From a virus (taxonomy: Duplodnaviria; Caudoviricetes), in IMG/VR virus record IMGVR_UViG_3300046786_000304, positions 160,001-224,000 of that record: a stretch of 64,000 bases of DNA; one strand, given 5' to 3'. Shown piece after piece: positions 38,835 to 63,492 of this stretch. The position numbers were made by a program, and so were the translations under genes. Positions within the stretch are counted from its first letter, which is position 1. Every line of letters starts with the position of its first letter. Under the pieces are notes generated by a model that was given only the letters and a program-made list of their open reading frames with translations, searched no databases and was not told the origin of the DNA.

Positions 38835-38909
38835 GCGCTAGAAGCTGAATGGCATAGCAAGAGCCTCTAAAACTCATGAGTGCGGGTTCGAGTCCCGTCT
38901 AGCGCACCA
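38835..38909 (+). tRNA. Amber suppressor tRNA, anticodon CUA (amino acid undetermined)
   Basis: 75 nt cloverleaf: GCGCTAG/CTAGCGC acceptor, A73, encoded CCA, D stem GCTG/TAGC, T arm GCGGG-TTCGAGT-CCCGT; standard numbering gives loop C32-U33-CUA-A37-A38; anticodon stem has only 3 WC pairs. Confidence 0.8.
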
Positions 38910-39869: not shown

Positions 39870-40439
39870 ATGAAAACAGTTGGAGATAAATTAGAAGCGT
39901 TTGCTATCACAGGAGTGAAGCCAGGACAACCAGAAGATGCGTTTTATACCATCACAGAAAAATCTTTCGAAGGTAAGTGGAAAGTAATTGTTTACTATCC
40001 AAAAGACTTTACATTCGTTTGTCCTACAGAGATTGTAGCCTATGACAAACTAGCAGGTGACTTTGCTGACCGTGACGCAGTATTGCTAACAGGTAGCACA
40101 GACAATGAGTTTTGTAAAGTAGCATGGCAAAAGAGCCACGATGACTTGCGTAAGATTACACATCACCAATTTGCTGATACACAGCGCAGTCATTACGACG
40201 AAACAACAGGCAGTTATCAAAATCTAAGCCTAGTTGAACAACTTGGTGTATTCTATGCGCCAGCAGGTGCCGCACTTCGCGCAACATTTATTGTTGATCC
40301 AGACAACGTTATCCAACACGTTACAGTCAACAACTTGAACGTTGGTCGTAGCCCAGAAGAAACTCTTCGCATCTTAGATGCTTTACAAACTGGCGAGTTG
40401 TGCGCTTGTAACCGTACTGTAGGCGGAGAAACACTATAA
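39870..40439 (+). CDS. ahpC: Peroxiredoxin AhpC
   Basis: YPKDFTFVCPTE, GRSPEE, GELC. Confidence 0.92.
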   Translation: MKTVGDKLEAFAITGVKPGQPEDAFYTITEKSFEGKWKVIVYYPKDFTFVCPTEIVAYDKLAGDFADRDAVLLTGSTDNEFCKVAWQKSHDDLRKITHHQFADTQRSHYDETTGSYQNLSLVEQLGVFYAPAGAALRATFIVDPDNVIQHVTVNNLNVGRSPEETLRILDALQTGELCACNRTVGGETL

Positions 40440-40945
40440 TGGCATTCATTGACGCAGTTAAAGGTGCGTTGCCAGACTATGCAAAGGACACTAAGTTAAA
40501 TCTCGATGCTGTTCTTTTGCGTAGTACATTAGATGCTGATGTTGCTATGGGTTGTGCTGTAGCGGCATTGGCCGCAACGGGCAATGGTAAAGTACTAGCA
40601 GTGATGTTAGCAGACAATCCTGTATTTGCTGAGAGCGCAATGACGGCCGCAAGCATCATGGCACAAAACAATGTTTGGTATCCTTATGTCGAGATGGCAG
40701 ATGACGCTAGTCTAAAAGGCTTGCCGGCACAATTACGTATGAACGCTATTGCTAGTCACGGCGGAACTACAAAGACAAACTTTGAAGCATTTAGTTTGGC
40801 CGCAAGTATTGTAGGCAAGTGTCATTTTTGTGTAAAAGCACATTATGAAACACTTAAACAAGAAGGCTATACTGTGGAACAACTTCGTGATATTGGACGC
40901 ATTGCCAGTGTTATGAATTCCGTAGCCAAGGTGTTAAACTCATAA
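40439..40945 (+). CDS. ahpD: Alkyl hydroperoxide reductase AhpD
   Basis: LPDYAKDTKLNL, LAASIVGKCHFC. Confidence 0.9.
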   Translation: MAFIDAVKGALPDYAKDTKLNLDAVLLRSTLDADVAMGCAVAALAATGNGKVLAVMLADNPVFAESAMTAASIMAQNNVWYPYVEMADDASLKGLPAQLRMNAIASHGGTTKTNFEAFSLAASIVGKCHFCVKAHYETLKQEGYTVEQLRDIGRIASVMNSVAKVLNS

Positions 40946-41060: not shown

Positions 41061-41960
41061 ATGACAACAAAAATCACAATCAAAGATAAAGCGGTAAACA
41101 CCACGTACCAAAACGTTACAGGTATTACAGGTGGATCAGGCGATGGCGCCGCATTTGACGTTACAAAAACAAATGGAGTTTACTCTGTTGTTCTTGACAG
41201 TCTAGCCGCAAGTGCTGGACATGGTTACGTAGCCGGCGACACAATCACGCTAGCTGGTACAGCATTAGGCGGTACAGTTGCTAATAACTTAATTGTTACA
41301 GTTGCTACAGTTGGCACTGCTGGTAAGATTGCTACATTTGGTGTAGTAGGTACAGGTCGAGTCGGTGATGGCACAGTCGACATCGTTGTAGATGTAACAG
41401 GCACAGCAGGTGTTGACACATACACCATGGGTGGTGCCAGCACAGAATACACCGTTACTAAAACTACTGATAACGTAAAGTTAGTAAGCACATTAGTTAG
41501 TAACATGGAATTCAATCTTGCTGACCATGAGCGTGTCGTATTCACAGACAAAGCCATTGCTTATGATGCCGCAGGCCGTGCTGGTGATGTTTACGCATTG
41601 TTAGCTGCCGCACTTGGTGTTAGTGATGTTACAACTGCATACGAAGGTATCGGTATCAGTCTTGCTGATGCAGGTTGGACTAATAAACAACTAGCACAGG
41701 CATTGTTGGCCACTGACACTTACAAAGCAGATGCGGGTGGTGTCAGTGACGAAACATTTATCAAGCACGTTTACAAAAACGTAATGGGCACAGACGCTAC
41801 ACTAGCAGATGTTACAGCATTGACAAATTGGATGAATGCTAATCACTACTCACAAGCTGATGTATTGGTTACTGCCAGCGAACTAGCAAGTTTTGAAACT
41901 GCTATTGGTTTAGTTGGTTTGGCTACAACTGGTATTGAATACACACCAGTAACAGCTTAA
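41061..41960 (+). CDS. Thr/Gly/Ala-rich surface protein with C-terminal DUF4214 (S-layer/RTX-associated)-like domain
   Basis: FIKHVYKNVMG...SQADVL...SE; beta-rich N-terminus; no Sec signal. Confidence 0.65.
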   Translation: MTTKITIKDKAVNTTYQNVTGITGGSGDGAAFDVTKTNGVYSVVLDSLAASAGHGYVAGDTITLAGTALGGTVANNLIVTVATVGTAGKIATFGVVGTGRVGDGTVDIVVDVTGTAGVDTYTMGGASTEYTVTKTTDNVKLVSTLVSNMEFNLADHERVVFTDKAIAYDAAGRAGDVYALLAAALGVSDVTTAYEGIGISLADAGWTNKQLAQALLATDTYKADAGGVSDETFIKHVYKNVMGTDATLADVTALTNWMNANHYSQADVLVTASELASFETAIGLVGLATTGIEYTPVTA

Positions 41961-41980
41961 TAGCTACAATTAGTATTACA

Positions 41981-42007
41981 AACCCGCTTCGGCGGGTTTT
42001 CTTTTGG
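41981..42007 (+). terminator. Intrinsic terminator, identical to 38758-38784
   Basis: AACCCGCTTCGGCGGGTTTTCTTTTGG. Confidence 0.9.
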
Positions 42008-42100: not shown

Positions 42101-43189
42101 ATGAAAAAAATTATCATGCTATTGTTATGTGCAATGATATCATTACAAGGAAAGGCAACAACAATGGAAAATATTAAAATAGTAGTACCATATCCTCCTG
42201 GCAGCAGTGCTGACAGCGTATTTAGAATATTACAAGCATATGGATTAAAGCGTAACATTAATTTTGTACCAGAATTCAAACCAGGCGCTAATGGATTGAT
42301 TGGGGCGGAATATGCTGCCATTCAACCAAAAGATGGTAAAACATTATTACTAACTGGAATTTCCGATCTCACTGCCAACGCACCAATTAAGAAAGTAGAT
42401 TACACTGATTTCACTCCGGTGGCAGCCTTGGTTTCTACTCATTTTTATCTAGTAGCAAATAAAAAATTCCCCAAAAATAACTTAACAGAAGTAGTTGGCA
42501 TGCTAAAACAAGACAGCCAGTCAGTGACTTTTGCAACCCAAAGTTTGAAACAACAAGTAACATTTAAAGAAACATTTTCTGAAAGAGGTATCAATAAAGA
42601 AGAAATTCGATTAGTGCCTTTTCCTCCAACGCAAGGTCTTACAGCAGTAATAGGCGGGCATGTGGACATAGGACTATTTCCTGGCTCAGTTGTTAAAAGC
42701 GCCATCGAATCCAATCAAGTTAAAGTACTAGCCACACTAGCACAAAATGATGATATCGACGGTGGTAAAAATTTAGAATCAATTCAAGGACCAGTAACTG
42801 GTGTGGACGGCATCGCTGTGTTTCTTCCTCGAGGAACGAATACACAAATGGTCGCATTCTGGTCCACGTTTATAGATGACTTTAAGAAAGACAGTGATGC
42901 TCAAGCTGCCTTTGTGAATAGATATTTTCAACTGTTCAAAGGTAAAGGATCAACTGAACTCGATGCTGTAATTAAAAAACAATTAATGTCAAATGACAAA
43001 TACAGTCTAACATTTAGGCAACAGCAAATAGCCAGCTTAATAATTAACCGCGGCCTAAACAATGAACAGATTGCTGATACTTTAAATTTAAGTCAAGCCA
43101 CAGTTAAACTACATGCTGGATTAGTCTTTAAGAAAGCAGGAGTTAAAAATAGACTTCAACTGATTGCTATCAACAATAATTTTGGTTAA
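42101..43189 (+). CDS. Bug/TctC-family solute-binding domain fused to a C-terminal LuxR HTH
   Basis: VVPYPPGSSAD, KPGANGLIG, DGKTLL, GGHVD; C-terminal LTFRQQQIASLIINRGLNNEQIADTLNLSQATVKLH. Confidence 0.8.
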   Translation: MKKIIMLLLCAMISLQGKATTMENIKIVVPYPPGSSADSVFRILQAYGLKRNINFVPEFKPGANGLIGAEYAAIQPKDGKTLLLTGISDLTANAPIKKVDYTDFTPVAALVSTHFYLVANKKFPKNNLTEVVGMLKQDSQSVTFATQSLKQQVTFKETFSERGINKEEIRLVPFPPTQGLTAVIGGHVDIGLFPGSVVKSAIESNQVKVLATLAQNDDIDGGKNLESIQGPVTGVDGIAVFLPRGTNTQMVAFWSTFIDDFKKDSDAQAAFVNRYFQLFKGKGSTELDAVIKKQLMSNDKYSLTFRQQQIASLIINRGLNNEQIADTLNLSQATVKLHAGLVFKKAGVKNRLQLIAINNNFG

Positions 43190-43191
43190 CC

Positions 43192-43255
43192 ACCTATACG
43201 CTGGTATAGGTTTGTGAATACTGCCCTATTTTAAATATTTGTATAGGGCAGTTTT
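43192..43255. terminator. Two adjacent hairpins after the Bug-LuxR gene
   Basis: ACCTATAC-GCTG-GTATAGGT; ACTGCCCTAT...ATAGGGCAGT-TTT. Confidence 0.6.
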
Positions 43256-43260
43256 ACACT

Positions 43261-43348
43261 GAAGTACTATTAGTACAGAGTACTAGTAATAGTAAGTACA
43301 GTTCACAGTAAGTATTAATATAGAAAGACTACGATGAGACGACTAGTA
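43261..43348. repeat. Cluster of AGTA/TACT short repeats, putative operator array
   Basis: At least 8 AGTA units in about 55 bp, including palindromes TACTATTAGTA and TACTAGTA. Confidence 0.5.
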
Positions 43349-43373: not shown

Positions 43374-44042
43374 ATGGATTTAACCCAACAACATAAAACA
43401 CCATTACACATTTACTTTGGTGACTTACTCGACGGCAAAAATCAAGCAGACTGTAAAGCCAATGATATAATAAACTCACTGAACTGTAGAGTTAAATGGT
43501 GTACAAGTTTTATTGAATTAAGTAATTCAGTTTATGAACAACCTAAGAACATTGTTGTTCATATAAACACAGTTAGGCGCAATGGCGGTACTATATCAGA
43601 ATTTATGCTTATGTTAGAAACTCTGATAAAATATGCTAACATTGATAGACCTAATATTGGCATTGTCATCGAAAAAGATACTGATTTGTCGACAATAAAA
43701 GAATTACAAAAACATAAAATATTAGGAATAGTTCCTGGTGTAGAATCTTTTAGCAATGATGATTGTATAACAGCTATTAATGCGTTATTAAATGATCAAT
43801 CGCACTGGCCCAGGGATATTATCAGTAAACTTCCTGGTAACAAAAAGTCAAAAACAAAATCAAATATTCATCTCACTGATAGACAAACACAGGTATATGA
43901 CCTCATAGCGTCGAGAGGTTTATCAAACAAACAAATAGCAAGAACGCTAAACATTTCCGAAAGCACAGTTAAGATTCATGTCAGCGCAATCATGAAGGCA
44001 TTGTGTGTTCGTAATAGAACACAGCTGGCTTTGACAAAATAA
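43374..44042 (+). CDS. LuxR/NarL-family regulator with degenerate receiver-like N-terminus
   Basis: [52 protein letters not shown]. Confidence 0.85.
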
Positions 44043-44145
44043 TACTGGCGTACATATACTACTAAGAACTACCATAATTAATAAGATTTCACTGTAAGTA
44101 GATATGAGGACTTATAAGTCCCATATTTAAATAGGGAAAATTATT

Positions 44146-44910
44146 ATGGCAGATTTATCTACAGTAACAGGCGGTGGCGACATCCTAGGTGGTGGCGGCA
44201 TGGGCGTAGGCGGCGGCCTAATCGGTGGTTTGATTTTAGGATCATTACTACGCAACAACGGTAACCTTTTTGGTGCCGATGGAAATGGAGCGGCAGGCGC
44301 AATGTTACGCAGTCCTCCAGAACAAGTTCAAGCTAACATGTCTATCATGCAATCTATTGGCGCAGTCGACAAGGCAGTTGCAGTTGGTACGGCAGCAATG
44401 GAAGGCAGTCAAGCTAATCAATCAGCGGCTATTACATCGCAACTAAATGCGGCTACAGGCAGTTTGGCTACTCGTATCGACAGCACACGCGAAGCAGTTA
44501 ACGCAAACGCAATGGTACTTGCACAACAATTGAATACTATCAACACTAACTTGATGTCTACAGCAAATGAGACACAACGTGCAGTATATGATGATGGTGA
44601 CAAAACTCGCGCATTGATCACAGCACAATACGAAGCGGCTCTAAACCGTCAATTGTCTGATGCTAACGCAGCCGTAATCGCGTTACAGACTCGTTTTGAA
44701 AATGCTGAACGCAGTCGCGGTATTGAAGTTACTACAACTAATAACATCAACCAGATGCAATCACAACAACAGCAACAACAACAGTATGGCAGTTTATACA
44801 ATGCCATTTGGGGTTTAGCTCAATCAATCCGTTCTAACAACGAAGCAATCAATGTTGGATCCGGTACATTGACAGCTAGCCCAACAAATACTAATACTAA
44901 CATTAGATAA
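44146..44910 (+). CDS. Gly-rich hydrophobic N-terminus + long coiled coil + Gln/Asn-rich tail protein
   Basis: GGGLIGGLILGSLL; Ala/Gln-rich heptads; QSQQQQQQQ; TNTNTNIR end. Confidence 0.8.
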   Translation: MADLSTVTGGGDILGGGGMGVGGGLIGGLILGSLLRNNGNLFGADGNGAAGAMLRSPPEQVQANMSIMQSIGAVDKAVAVGTAAMEGSQANQSAAITSQLNAATGSLATRIDSTREAVNANAMVLAQQLNTINTNLMSTANETQRAVYDDGDKTRALITAQYEAALNRQLSDANAAVIALQTRFENAERSRGIEVTTTNNINQMQSQQQQQQQYGSLYNAIWGLAQSIRSNNEAINVGSGTLTASPTNTNTNIR

Positions 44911-55417: not shown

Positions 55418-55837
55418 ATGGAAGATACACAAAATTATTATATAACACCACCTACGATATTTTTACCCGAGACGGGATTAAGAATAACAGTATTTGGTAC
55501 AGATGAAGATTGGGCAGAACAATTATCAGATGAACTTGAAGATACATTCCCTTCCATTCCAATGACATTTTACTTGCTTGATGAAGCTACATCTACTAAC
55601 TGGCAATGGTTATATATGATGTCTGAAACCAGTGATTTGGTAATGGTTAATGTTGGTAAAGCCAGTCAAGTTGAACTAATTTTATCATGTATGGATATGG
55701 GAAATAAATTTTGGTTCTATGTGGACAACGAAGTAGTTGACAAAGACCTTAAAATATTGTTTAATACTATTAATGCAAATGTATTCAACAACAGCGAACA
55801 ACTACACGCAATGCTTAGAAATTTCGTCGGCGAATGA
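55418..55837 (+). CDS. Hypothetical protein
   Basis: Acidic ORF coupled to clpX. Confidence 0.7.
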   Translation: MEDTQNYYITPPTIFLPETGLRITVFGTDEDWAEQLSDELEDTFPSIPMTFYLLDEATSTNWQWLYMMSETSDLVMVNVGKASQVELILSCMDMGNKFWFYVDNEVVDKDLKILFNTINANVFNNSEQLHAMLRNFVGE

Positions 55838-57072
55838 ACGATAAAACCAAACCATTAATGAAATGCTCTTTCTGTGAAAAGAGCCAAAACGAAGTCAAAA
55901 AACTTGTAGCAGGTAACAGTGGTTATATCTGCGATGAGTGTATTGTACTATGTAACGAAGTTATCAAAGACGACGTACAAAAAACAGCTACCAAAGATAA
56001 ACTACCCACACCACGTGAAATATTCCAACATCTAGATCAATATGTTATTGGTCAAGATTATCCCAAGTTGGCACTTAGTGTAGCAGTTTACAATCATTAT
56101 AAACGATTGTATAATAAAAGCGATGTAGAAATTGAAAAGAGCAATGTATTGTTTATTGGTCCTACGGGATCAGGCAAAACATTACTGGCAAAGACTATTG
56201 CTAAATTCCTCGACGTTCCATTTGCTATCACAGATGCTACAAGTTTAACTGAAGCAGGTTATGTAGGTGAAGACGTTGAAAACGTTATTCATAAACTATA
56301 TCAAGCCGCTGACCAAAACATCGAACGATGCGAACAAGGTATTATCTATATCGACGAGATTGATAAAAAAGGACGTAAGAGTGAAGGCACAAGCATTACT
56401 CGCGACGTATCAGGAGAAGGCGTTCAGCAAGCATTATTAAAGATCATTGAAGGCACTGAATGCCGTGTTCCGCAACAAGGTGGACGTAAACATCCTGGCA
56501 ATGAAATGCTAACTATCAACACTAAGAACATTTTGTTTATCCTAGGTGGAGCATTTGTTGGATTAGAAGATATTATTAATAAAAGACTTAACAACAAGTC
56601 TACTATGGGTTTTGCTGGTAATCCAGATAAAGTTAAAACAGACCTTACTAAGGTTATACACGAAGATGTTATCAAATGGGGCATTATACCTGAACTAGCA
56701 GGACGCATGCCTAAGATAGCAGTACTTGAAGAATTAAATGACGAACAAATGGTAAGGGCAATGACTGAACCAAAAAACAGTATTATTAGCCAGTATCAAA
56801 GTTTGTTCAAAATGGACGGAATAGATTTAGAAATAGAATCATCTGCTTGCATTGCAATAGCAAATAAATGTATTACAATGAAACTCGGAGCACGAGGTTT
56901 ACGAGCAGAACTTGAAAACGTGCTACTTAAAACACAGTTCGTACTACCCGACTTGGCCGCAGAGAATGTAGTCAAGGTCACAATTACAGAGGATACAGTG
57001 ACTCAAGGTAAAGAACCACTACTAGTATATGGCAACAAACGAAAAAAGACAAGAGAACAGAATTCTCAGTAA
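55834..57072 (+). CDS. clpX: ATP-dependent Clp protease ATP-binding subunit ClpX
   Basis: CSFC...ICDEC Zn finger, GPTGSGKT, GYVGEDVE, DEIDK, RDVSGEGVQ, RKH loop, MGF loop. Confidence 0.95.
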   Translation: MNDKTKPLMKCSFCEKSQNEVKKLVAGNSGYICDECIVLCNEVIKDDVQKTATKDKLPTPREIFQHLDQYVIGQDYPKLALSVAVYNHYKRLYNKSDVEIEKSNVLFIGPTGSGKTLLAKTIAKFLDVPFAITDATSLTEAGYVGEDVENVIHKLYQAADQNIERCEQGIIYIDEIDKKGRKSEGTSITRDVSGEGVQQALLKIIEGTECRVPQQGGRKHPGNEMLTINTKNILFILGGAFVGLEDIINKRLNNKSTMGFAGNPDKVKTDLTKVIHEDVIKWGIIPELAGRMPKIAVLEELNDEQMVRAMTEPKNSIISQYQSLFKMDGIDLEIESSACIAIANKCITMKLGARGLRAELENVLLKTQFVLPDLAAENVVKVTITEDTVTQGKEPLLVYGNKRKKTREQNSQ

Positions 57073-61765: not shown

Positions 61766-62143
61766 ATGGAAACCACAATCATTCTCAACACAGACGGCCG
61801 AGGTCTTTGGAGTCGACAATCCAAGCCTGTAACAGTTACTGGAATCGATTGTATTATTACAAAAATGGAAGACGAGGATCGTTTGTTTGGTGAACTAATG
61901 GTTCGTTTTGACACAGCGTCGTGGGACACAGACAAAGATGGTTTGATTTACACAGATGACCAATTTTTAAAAGAATTACACACTTTTCTAAAATCACTGG
62001 GCTTCTCGAATGAAGCATCCAATGATGTTAGTTATAGCGAACAAGGTATGCAGGGCGACAATTATGTTAGCCTGGACGTAGGTATGGAATTCTGCGAAGA
62101 ATGGATTAATGAATTCCCTGACACTGAAATTTTTGAATATTAA
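61766..62143 (+). CDS. Acidic hypothetical early protein
   Basis: AAGGA RBS; YSEQGMQGDNYVSLDV. Confidence 0.7.
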   Translation: METTIILNTDGRGLWSRQSKPVTVTGIDCIITKMEDEDRLFGELMVRFDTASWDTDKDGLIYTDDQFLKELHTFLKSLGFSNEASNDVSYSEQGMQGDNYVSLDVGMEFCEEWINEFPDTEIFEY

Positions 62144-63492
62144 GCACCGATATCGGGACAATGTCTGGCTAGTATATCTTGTATTTCTGGCAGGACTTGT
62201 CTCCAATTAGTGCCTCTGATTTTATCTAGTTTGTCCATGACAATGACAAACTCTCGGTATTTCCATTCTTTATCTTCGTCTATATATTTTTCTAAGAATT
62301 TAATAATCGCTTTATACCAAGTAGTTCTTTTTTCACTGTGGTGCATTAAACTTTGATAGTGATTAATAATTTCTTCTTTGGCTGATTTTGGCAAAGATCT
62401 AAGATCCAACCAATTTGGTCCTTCTAAAAATCTAAACTCTACAGGAATATTTAATTCCTCAGCCACTGCTGATAATCTCTCTATAGCATATATTGATCCA
62501 ATACCGATACAGCAGGACAAGTAATGAATATCCATGCCGTTATCTTTTAGAGTTTTTATATTGTCAATGATTGTATTGTACTTGCCCGGGAAACGAATTA
62601 GTTCATATCGTTCTTCGATATCATCAACACTAACACAAAAATTGATTTTCTTAAAATGTTTAAATTTTTCGATAATTTTATTGTTGATAACAGTTAAGTT
62701 GGTATCATAACGTAATATAATATTTTTTGCAAAGTCATTCTCTATAAGTTTATCTAATATTTTTGTCATGGCGGGTGCTACTAATGGCTCGCCACCCGAG
62801 AAATAAATGTGTCTTAAATCCGGTGCTATTTTGTCAAATCGTTCCCACCAAATTTCGCTGTCCCACCATTTAGAATAGTCTAAGATTTCTCTGCCTTTGC
62901 TGTCCGTAGTTAGTCTATATTCCTTGTCGCCCCATACTGTACCAGGCGGCATTACTTGAACATTGCCCCAAAGTTTGTTCCAATCTTCATACCAAAGACT
63001 ACTGTACTCCGGGCTACACATAATACATTTTTGATTGCACAAATTACTCAATCGTAAACCTAGATTTACAACCTTTGCTGTGGATGTACCATCGGGTAGT
63101 GTATATTGATCAGCCTGATCCCATCTAACATATTCTGGAATTTCTGCTGTTGTTAAACGATTAACACGTTGCCTCTTACTCTTACCCCATTGTTTAATTC
63201 CATCACTGCCCCACTCGCTTAAATTTTTTGTACTGTGTTCAGCGACATAACAATTACGGCATCTTTTTACTTGGATATTTTCTTTGAGTTGTAGTCGATG
63301 ATCCTTGTGAGTTTCGCTATTAATTGCTTCTTCAATGGTATGCGTCATTACGTTCATGACATTGCCATTTTTATCACGTGCCATTCCATAGTCTTTGCCA
63401 TAGTTTGCTAGGCAACAAATTTTATAGTCACCGAGTGTATTGATTTCTAATTGGCTCCATAGCTCGCCACAAAAGCTTTCTAAATTAAACAT
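62140..63492 (-). CDS. Radical SAM enzyme with N-terminal SPASM/Twitch-like Cys cluster
   Basis: ICC...CRNCY; CNQKCIMC; FSGGEP; YDTN. Confidence 0.87.
   Translation of the reverse strand: MFNLESFCGELWSQLEINTLGDYKICCLANYGKDYGMARDKNGNVMNVMTHTIEEAINSETHKDHRLQLKENIQVKRCRNCYVAEHSTKNLSEWGSDGIKQWGKSKRQRVNRLTTAEIPEYVRWDQADQYTLPDGTSTAKVVNLGLRLSNLCNQKCIMCSPEYSSLWYEDWNKLWGNVQVMPPGTVWGDKEYRLTTDSKGREILDYSKWWDSEIWWERFDKIAPDLRHIYFSGGEPLVAPAMTKILDKLIENDFAKNIILRYDTNLTVINNKIIEKFKHFKKINFCVSVDDIEERYELIRFPGKYNTIIDNIKTLKDNGMDIHYLSCCIGIGSIYAIERLSAVAEELNIPVEFRFLEGPNWLDLRSLPKSAKEEIINHYQSLMHHSEKRTTWYKAIIKFLEKYIDEDKEWKYREFVIVMDKLDKIRGTNWRQVLPEIQDILARHCPDIGA

Follow-up and report, generated by a model that had tools for sequence, protein, structure and literature searches.

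A Bug/TctC solute-binding domain fused to a LuxR-type DNA-binding domain in large freshwater phages: a candidate one-component regulator behind a conserved signal peptide

Few systems are known by which phages make decisions on the basis of small molecules: the arbitrium peptides, VqmA of phage VP882 and the phage LuxR-type acyl-homoserine-lactone receptors. Among cytoplasmic regulators, the LysR and LacI/GalR types, which have no signal peptide, use a clamshell effector domain resembling a periplasmic binding protein (PBP) to sense a small molecule and control an N-terminal helix-turn-helix (HTH). The present study concerns gene 1, located at 42101-43189 of a 64,000 nucleotide stretch of phage DNA, the window, that corresponds to bases 160001-224000 of the 233 kb IMG/VR virus record IMGVR_UViG_3300046786_000304 (~65% complete by CheckV). 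The gene encodes a Bug/TctC solute-binding domain fused to a LuxR/GerE HTH, and the nearest known systems are the phage LuxR-type quorum-sensing receptors (PMC6456758) and the cytoplasmic regulators with binding-protein-like effector domains.

The phage LuxR-type receptors (Silpe & Bassler 2019, PMC6456758) have the same LuxR/GerE output domain as gene 1 and, like VqmA of phage VP882 (PMC8284805), they combine a phage-encoded small-molecule sensor with an HTH that reads a chemical cue. However, the N-terminal domain of these receptors binds acyl-homoserine lactones (or is a PAS domain) and they lack a signal peptide, whereas gene 1 carries a periplasmic-type binding protein and belongs to a jumbo phage. 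The LysR and LacI types are built from other PBP and HTH families; gene 1, unlike these regulators, has a C-terminal HTH of the LuxR type and a bona fide TctC domain as sensor, and it retains the leader. The Bug/TctC proteins themselves (BugD, BugE, TphC, MatC, AdpC, BctC) share with gene 1 the Pfam family, the two-lobe fold and the β1-α1 "pincer" loop, and their N-terminal signal peptide has a putative counterpart in gene 1. Most Bug proteins lack adjacent transporter genes and are designated orphans (PMC5812351), and gene 1 is likewise without an adjacent TctAB. In contrast to these proteins, gene 1 is phage-encoded, has a C-terminal DNA-binding domain and a short TctC domain (~275 residues), and the second glycine of the loop is a serine in most members.

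The best supported reading of this architecture is a one-component metabolite sensor. More specifically, we propose, at a likelihood that we put slightly below even, that gene 1 encodes a ligand-responsive regulator of the LuxR type, a phage one-component system whose sensor is the Bug/TctC domain and whose partner is the atypical receiver-LuxR protein encoded by the next gene, and that a form translated from Met22 binds DNA beside an exported form. The elements of gene 1 are as follows.

42101-43189, + strand: gene 1, 362 aa, signal peptide, Bug/TctC domain and LuxR/GerE HTH (open reading frame, Pfam, homologues, model)
42101-42157, + strand: signal peptide, residues 1-19 (MKK, hydrophobic core, G-K-A), with Sec-type features and conservation
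42164-42166, + strand: codon of Met22, candidate internal start, from its conservation; AAGGAAAGG precedes the codon in the window
42164-42988, + strand: Bug/TctC two-lobe fold, residues 22-296, including the loop P30-Y-P-P-G-S-S-A-D38 (Pfam, model, Foldseek)
43004-43174, + strand: LuxR/GerE four-helix HTH, residues 302-358, behind a linker of low confidence, residues 296-301 (Pfam, model)

The signal-like peptide, the TctC domain and the C-terminal LuxR HTH had been described in an earlier, sequence-only reading of the window, and all three were found by Pfam, modelling and hydropathy. TctC (PF03401) was matched over residues 56-217 with 49.6 bits (cut-off 27) and GerE (PF00196) over residues 302-355 with 45.1 bits (cut-off 23.5); Pfam detected no autoinducer-binding domain in the gene 1 product, the N-terminal domain being TctC. 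An AlphaFold2 model, a check proposed in that reading, was built on 19 homologues with a mean predicted local distance difference test score (pLDDT) of 81 and gave a complete two-lobe Bug fold with a separate four-helix HTH. In the model, an N-terminal helix (residues 2-16) was followed by a two-lobe α/β domain (~22-296), a linker (296-301, pLDDT <50) and four helices (305-317, 321-328, 332-346 and 351-359) within residues 305-359. The target-normalised template modelling (TM) scores obtained with Foldseek against TphC (7ndr), BugE (2dvz), BugD (2f5x), MatC and AdpC were 0.72-0.78 over ~295-300 residues, a coverage which indicates that the whole two-lobe Bug fold is present; 6hke and 5oei are among the solved structures matched in this range. 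The family profile matched TphC, BugD and BugE at E values of 3e-17 to 6e-13, as well as the C-terminal domains of VpsT, ChrA, NarL and GerE. The resemblance of the HTH to that of the following gene, gene 2 (43374-44042), amounted to 47% identity. The sensor and output domains reside in one polypeptide, the arrangement that defines a one-component system.

In BugD, BugE and AdpC, the carboxylate of the ligand is bound by two water molecules held in the Bug loop P-F-x-A-G-G-x-x-D, which lies between β1 and α1; hydroxyl residues can stand in for the loop glycines (PMC5812351). The gene 1 loop, P30-Y-P-P-G-S-S-A-D38, and the consensus of the fused proteins, P-Y-x-x-G-[SG]-G-x-[DE], conform to the signature P-[FY]-x-x-G-[GS]-x-x-[DE], as does the family, with deviations in the distant members P0116 and P0118. 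Since the loop is retained and hydroxyl substitution is allowed, a carboxylate-type ligand is a reasonable expectation, and gene 1, as a member of this family, probably binds a carboxylate-type small molecule.

The sequence-only reading had raised the possibilities that the fusion was unique to one assembly or a recent chimera. A word-indexed search returned 19 clusters, 43-91% identical, that had both Pfam domains and the same length as gene 1. An exhaustive profile search of 1.84 billion representative proteins, of which the best 150 matches were inspected, extended this list by eight fused clusters (P0110-P0116, P0118), full-length but more distant, so that the set of fused proteins comprised 27 clusters, all of them from metagenomes. 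The fused architecture was retained down to ~30-45% identity, and among these best 150 matches TctC and GerE were not combined in any other protein. No match to the fused protein was found in GenBank phages by tblastn, and no description of a TctC-LuxR fusion was found in the literature searched or in deposited phage genomes. In addition, a 1,170-nt contig from a run of a different sample and study was identical to 42119-43288 and crossed both the domain junction and the stop codon. The ratio of nonsynonymous to synonymous polymorphism (pN/pS), calculated pairwise over eight loci, was 0.66 for residues 1-19, 0.34 for residues 20-60, 0.45 for the TctC domain and 0.20 for the HTH; all segments of gene 1 are under purifying selection (pN/pS <1). 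Taken with the synteny and the single clade described below, the many clusters of the same architecture and length, the purifying selection and the identical independent contig make it almost certain that gene 1 is not an assembly chimera, a frameshift artefact or a very recent fusion without function.

A maximum-likelihood tree of the TctC domain was calculated from 73 rows with a quick rather than a careful search setting. The fused proteins formed one clade with a Shimodaira-Hasegawa-like approximate likelihood ratio test (SH-aLRT) value of 85, and its successive outgroups, P0119 (locus L003) and P0122 (locus L092), are both unfused TctC proteins. In L003 and L092 the TctC gene overlaps a receiver-LuxR gene, which is followed by a free solo LuxR HTH of 75 aa (75-76 aa over the two loci).

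L003, 4627-4851: free-standing LuxR/GerE HTH, GerE-sized, after the receiver-LuxR gene
L092, 2605-2835: free-standing LuxR/GerE HTH, GerE-sized, after the receiver-LuxR gene

These two solo HTH proteins are 85% identical to each other, and the unfused L003 TctC protein stops exactly where the linker of the fused protein starts. Fused or split, each locus has one TctC domain and two HTHs, a constancy which argues for a functional link in the Rosetta-stone sense. By the evidence of the tree and of the split loci, the fusion is evidently old and arose once, within a pre-existing partnership of TctC and LuxR genes. A tree of the HTH, based on 67 columns, was unresolved and did not distinguish a copy of the neighbour's HTH from capture of the solo HTH.

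A degenerate HTH would have counted against that reading; the HTH proved instead to be the most constrained segment of the protein. Thirteen residues (L303, T304, R306, L313, I314, G318, L328, V335, K336, H338, K344, K345 and Q353) were invariant in 27/27 fused proteins and the recognition helix, T/S-V-K-x-H...K-K, was kept throughout. The residues of this helix would map onto positions that we take to be the DNA-contact residues of NarL. The combination of the lowest pN/pS and an invariant recognition helix is hard to explain unless the domain binds DNA, and we infer that it does. Apart from those of gene 1 and gene 2, the 233 kb record has no GerE domain.

The presence of an export signal ahead of a DNA-binding domain was regarded at the outset as a topological contradiction, and the contradiction is real. 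Inspection by eye and hydropathy values revealed three signal-peptide features at the N-terminus: the basic n-region MKK, a hydrophobic core 12 residues long and a cleavage-type site, G-K-A. Ala19, at the -1 position, did not vary among the 19 close homologues and was retained in 89% of the whole set of 27 fused proteins, compared with 30-60% conservation of the neighboring residues. An 11-residue segment with a mean Kyte-Doolittle value of 2.4-3.3 was present in every locus examined, and the core was kept in all fused and unfused relatives, the leaders of the latter being comparable. The conservation of the core and of the -1 alanine, together with the leaders in all unfused relatives, suggests that export is under selection. 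An in-frame stop codon occurred 1-11 codons upstream of the first start codon, ATG1, in 8/9 loci (34 codons in L089), and the frame from ATG1 was open, with no frame-breaking indels, in 9/9 loci; the N-terminal segment, on these grounds, is evidently translated. A Tat signal was considered and set aside, as the window protein has no twin arginine. A lipoprotein signal was likewise rejected, since the window protein has LLLC in place of a lipobox and the L-I-S-C-like strings seen by eye in a few distant members were not conserved.

One explanation of these features is that the protein acts only after export. The whole protein would then be periplasmic and serve as a solute-binding protein for a tripartite tricarboxylate transporter (TTT) of the host or for a sensor kinase, as BctC does, while the HTH would function in dimerization, docking or the binding of nucleic acid in the envelope and not in transcription. 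The conservation of leader, core and -1 alanine in fused and unfused relatives alike is what would be expected of such a protein, the very hydrophobic core (mean Kyte-Doolittle 2.4-3.3 over 11 residues) favors efficient targeting, and Bug proteins can signal through kinases, as in BctC/BctE (PMC8050422, PMC5812351). We nevertheless consider it unlikely, because the HTH is the segment under the strongest constraint and has kept canonical recognition-helix residues, because conserved, locus-specific, operator-like repeats flank the neighboring genes (see below) and because the unfused relatives have a free cytoplasmic solo HTH instead of the fused one. Moreover, a periplasmic LuxR HTH has no precedent in the literature searched.

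The second conserved feature near the N-terminus is Met22. When the proteins were aligned on the anchor proline of the P-[YF]-x-x-G loop, Met22 fell at position -8, and a methionine occupied this position in 23/26 anchored fused proteins. P0114 also has a methionine at -8, as seen by eye, and P0019 has one three residues earlier, so that 25/27 fused proteins have the residue. In the 47 anchored unfused relatives, position -8 was A, S, N, T, D, G or others and methionine was found in none (0/47); the entropy of the column was 0.70 bits in the fused and 3.15 bits in the unfused proteins. No other residue between the cleavage site and strand β1 is as well conserved as Met22. A methionine at the start of the mature domain that is fixed only in the lineage bearing the HTH fits the expectation of a second, leaderless product. 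A comparable division has been described for Tli of Enterobacter cloacae, whose periplasmic pool is accompanied by a cytosolic pool with a function of its own, the latter presumably arising from starts downstream of the signal sequence (bioRxiv 10.1101/2023.03.28.534661). Tli, however, is an unrelated lipoprotein and not a regulator, and the second start proposed for gene 1 is deduced from conservation.

The same two conserved features could be reconciled in other ways. If only the ATG1 product were made, the precursor might act on DNA before or instead of export, and secretion would deplete the cytoplasmic regulator; cytoplasmic ligand-induced folding, saturation of Sec or loss of the membrane potential late in infection would then switch the regulator on. 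Such export gating accounts for a conserved signal peptide and HTH with no need of an internal start and is compatible with the flexible interdomain linker (pLDDT <50, residues 296-301). It leaves the fused-specific conservation of Met22 unexplained, however, and is purely mechanistic speculation, so that we judge it to be distinctly unlikely.

Alternatively, the start may have been mis-annotated, with Met22 as the sole start of a plain cytoplasmic one-component regulator and the upstream hydrophobic segment an untranslated relic. The translation signals of the window lean in this direction: an SD (Shine-Dalgarno)-like tract, AAGGAAAGG, lies before Met22 with a predicted duplex energy of -6.0 kcal/mol, while the SD of ATG1 is almost nil in the window clade (duplex -0.4 to -1.5 kcal/mol). 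In L088, L089 and L090, however, the SDs at ATG1 are strong; moreover, a useless leader would have decayed, whereas the ATG1 frame is open in 9/9 loci with no indels, and the core and -1 alanine persist over a long tree. A mis-annotated start is, in our view, very unlikely.

Several observations weigh against a regulator with a Met22 form, 1) a conserved SD before Met22 was not found over 9 loci, as would also be expected if the protein were exported only, the predicted anti-SD duplex being strong in the window, L006, L088 and L090 and near zero in L004, L007, L084 and L089, 2) the RNA accessibility at Met22 relative to other in-frame positions ranged by locus from percentile 17 to 91 and gave no consistent signal, 3) two fused clusters, P0113 and P0118, have no methionine, P0113 having a nearby GTG preceded by GGAAAGG, 4) Met22 arose once on the tree, so that its link with the fusion amounts to one event followed by retention and admits no statistical test, 5) the conserved signal peptide and -1 alanine probably cause part of the protein to be exported together with its HTH, which would be wasteful and has no known precedent, and 6) TctA (PF01970) was absent from the 233 kb record, a record ~65% complete in which TctB was not searched for. 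As for the sixth point, a transporter of the host may serve the protein. As for the first, an SD-like 4-mer occurs upstream of only 43% of the open reading frames (ORFs) of this phage, compared with a background of 11%, so that its absence at Met22 is weak evidence either way. The sequence-only reading had suggested a cytoplasmic one-component sensor. The sensor is the part of that suggestion which is best supported, while its cytoplasmic location is put in question by the selection on the signal peptide.

The DNA on either side of gene 1 and of gene 2 contains the following elements.

41980-41999, + strand: intrinsic-terminator-like hairpin and T-run closing the upstream gene (8-pair stem, 5 GC pairs, TCTTTT tail)
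43192-43256, + strand: two terminator-like hairpins directly after the gene 1 stop codon (43192-43211; 43220-43252, then TTTT), from folding
43258-43266, + strand: ACTGAAG[CT]A element, conserved in L084, L089, L090, L003 and L092, unfused loci included
43292-43298, + strand: GTAAGTA, distal site before gene 2 (motif scan, relatives)
43308-43314, + strand: GTAAGTA, proximal site, 66 nt before gene 2, adjoining a TA-rich -10-like core
43374-44042, + strand: gene 2, NarL/FixJ-type response-regulator fold and LuxR HTH (model, structure matches, synteny)
44094-44100, + strand: GTAAGTA, 52 nt before gene 3 (motif scan, relatives)
44146-44910, + strand: gene 3, 254 aa, Gly-rich N-terminus and coiled coil, without a family match, opening the downstream fibre-like cassette

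The upstream terminator-like element recurs in L004, L006 and L086. The segment 43192-43256 folds with a minimum free energy of -30.6 kcal/mol (z = -4.7; 0/200 shuffles were as stable), and the first of its two hairpins, 43192-43211, recurs in homologous loci at the same place behind the stop codon. The terminator-like hairpins on both flanks suggest that gene 1 is transcribed as a unit of its own. The ACTGAAG at 43258 is the sole intergenic copy in the 233 kb record.

The heptamer GTAAGTA occurs four times between genes in the record, and three of these four copies are those at 43292, 43308 and 44094; in the 287 intergenic bases that flank gene 2, ~0.06 copies would be expected by a base-composition estimate. 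The layout, a pair of sites ahead of gene 2 and a single one ahead of gene 3, was kept on the + strand in L084, L086, L089 and L090, the first base being G or T, and L088 and L091 retain part of the arrangement. In the 15 kb locus L084, the three sites are the only + strand copies. In L084, L089 and L090 the proximal site forms the left arm of an inverted repeat of 22 bp, GTAAGT-N10-ACTTAC, which ends just before the gene 2 ribosome-binding site and has the size expected of a LuxR-type dimer site. The rarity of GTAAGTA elsewhere in the record and its kept positions in divergent relatives make it look like an operator, and the sites are good candidate operators for both LuxR proteins. Read on the opposite strand, the heptamer is TACTTAC, which resembles what we take to be the NarL half-site, TACYYMT.

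A second GerE gene of ~194-225 residues followed gene 1 in 7/7 distinct fused loci with enough downstream sequence (L084/L085, L086, L088, L089, L090, L091 and the window). The model of the gene 2 product (mean pLDDT 80) consists of a (βα)5 domain and an HTH, and full-length matches were obtained to VraR, VpsT, ChrA, LiaR and RcsB at E values of 2e-8 to 1e-6, with partial NCBIfam matches to ErdR and CsgD; Pfam Response_reg gave no match in the gene 2 protein. At the phospho-acceptor position after strand 3 the window protein has N; its homologues have D, S, P, I or F there, and several of them lack the first strand and the acidic pair. The lack of conservation of the phospho-acceptor and the acidic pair marks gene 2 as an atypical receiver, and its product is probably an atypical regulator that works independently of phosphorylation. 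In these respects it resembles VpsT and CsgD, atypical members of the NarL/FixJ class with a receiver-like fold, a LuxR HTH and a phospho-acceptor that is not conserved. It differs from VpsT in that inspection by eye revealed no W[FLM][TS]R motif, and in that it is phage-encoded and always paired with a TctC gene. Gene 3, from the position of the 44094 site, is a candidate target of the regulators.

In the mechanism that we propose, the Bug/TctC domain would sense a small molecule and control the attached LuxR HTH of the gene 1 product. This protein and the adjacent receiver-LuxR protein would act at the GTAAGTA sites before gene 2 and gene 3 and might thereby control the second regulator and the downstream coiled-coil/fibre-like cassette. 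Translation from ATG1 would give a protein that is exported by Sec and cleaved by signal peptidase, and translation from Met22 a leaderless cytoplasmic protein, the presumed DNA-binding form. In its fullest form, the proposal is that one gene serves two compartments with two proteoforms, a periplasmic Bug-type binder and a Met22-started cytoplasmic LuxR-type factor, and couples conditions outside, conditions inside and the state of secretion to the second regulator and the fibre-like cassette. We advance this extended version with considerable reserve and think it somewhat improbable.

The carriers of the fused gene are a family of large, uncultured freshwater (jumbo) phages. The proteins of the window include a DnaB-type helicase, other helicases, ribonucleotide reductase, a ClpX-like protein and tail-fibre-like proteins, and two jumbo phages are the nearest cultured relatives by DnaB, namely PA5oct, which infects Pseudomonas (48.6%), and the Agrobacterium phage Atu_ph07 (45%). 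A nucleus-forming, phiKZ-like phage with an enclosed DNA compartment was considered and dropped, because these DnaB relatives (45-49%) are not phiKZ-like. A scan of 185,579 species-representative bacterial genomes, limited to two peptide patterns, returned no relative, and a scan of viral contigs yielded L003, the split relative, alone. One metatranscriptome contained zero contigs of the gene 1 locus, a result that is uninformative on expression.

The closer relatives L084-L087 share the upstream neighbours of the window, AhpC and AhpD followed by a DUF4214 protein (a porin in L084). Just upstream of gene 1, 39870-40945 encodes an AhpC/TSA peroxiredoxin (189 aa) and an AhpD/CMD-family protein (168 aa), a pair that is syntenic in L084-L087 and resembles an auxiliary oxidative-stress module. 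At 3816-4721 of L084, a 301-aa Gram-negative porin (Porin_4/Porin_1) replaces the 299-aa DUF4214 protein of the window (41061-41960); the presence of a porin gene in this phage indicates a Gram-negative host. The segment 44937-46869, which follows the regulators and gene 3 directly, contains four consecutive small ORFs (134-183 aa) that share a C-terminal beta-rich module; their PHROG matches, to tail-fibre and baseplate proteins, are weak. The split locus L003 encodes, at 100-2880, a 926-aa collagen-like protein with long G-x-x triplet repeats of the GATGPQGDV type, and its C-terminal module resembles these small fibre-like ORFs. Elsewhere in the window, ARAGORN identified a tRNA with the anticodon CUA ("tRNA-Pyl") at 38835-38909, possibly an amber suppressor, the phage ORFs otherwise fitting the standard code. 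The ClpX-like ATPase (55834-57072) is ~54% identical to the ClpX homologues of Atu_ph07, Bacillus phage G and others, and a 450-aa ORF on the - strand (62140-63492) has a PHROG match to a radical-SAM domain.

The family would add a new type of phage sensor, a Bug/TctC carboxylate-type domain wired to a LuxR HTH. It also poses a testable puzzle in cell biology, a DNA-binding domain behind a conserved export signal with a conserved methionine at the position of a leaderless start. If the two-form model is true, it would bring a one-component domain architecture and a way of using dual translation starts that are both new, and would show in compact, natural form how one gene can serve two compartments. 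Once the ligand is identified, the protein may provide a scaffold for biosensors. Bug proteins are very numerous. It has long been suspected that many of them signal rather than transport (PMC5812351), and a Bug domain hard-wired to a transcriptional output would support the suspected signalling role of the orphan Bugs.

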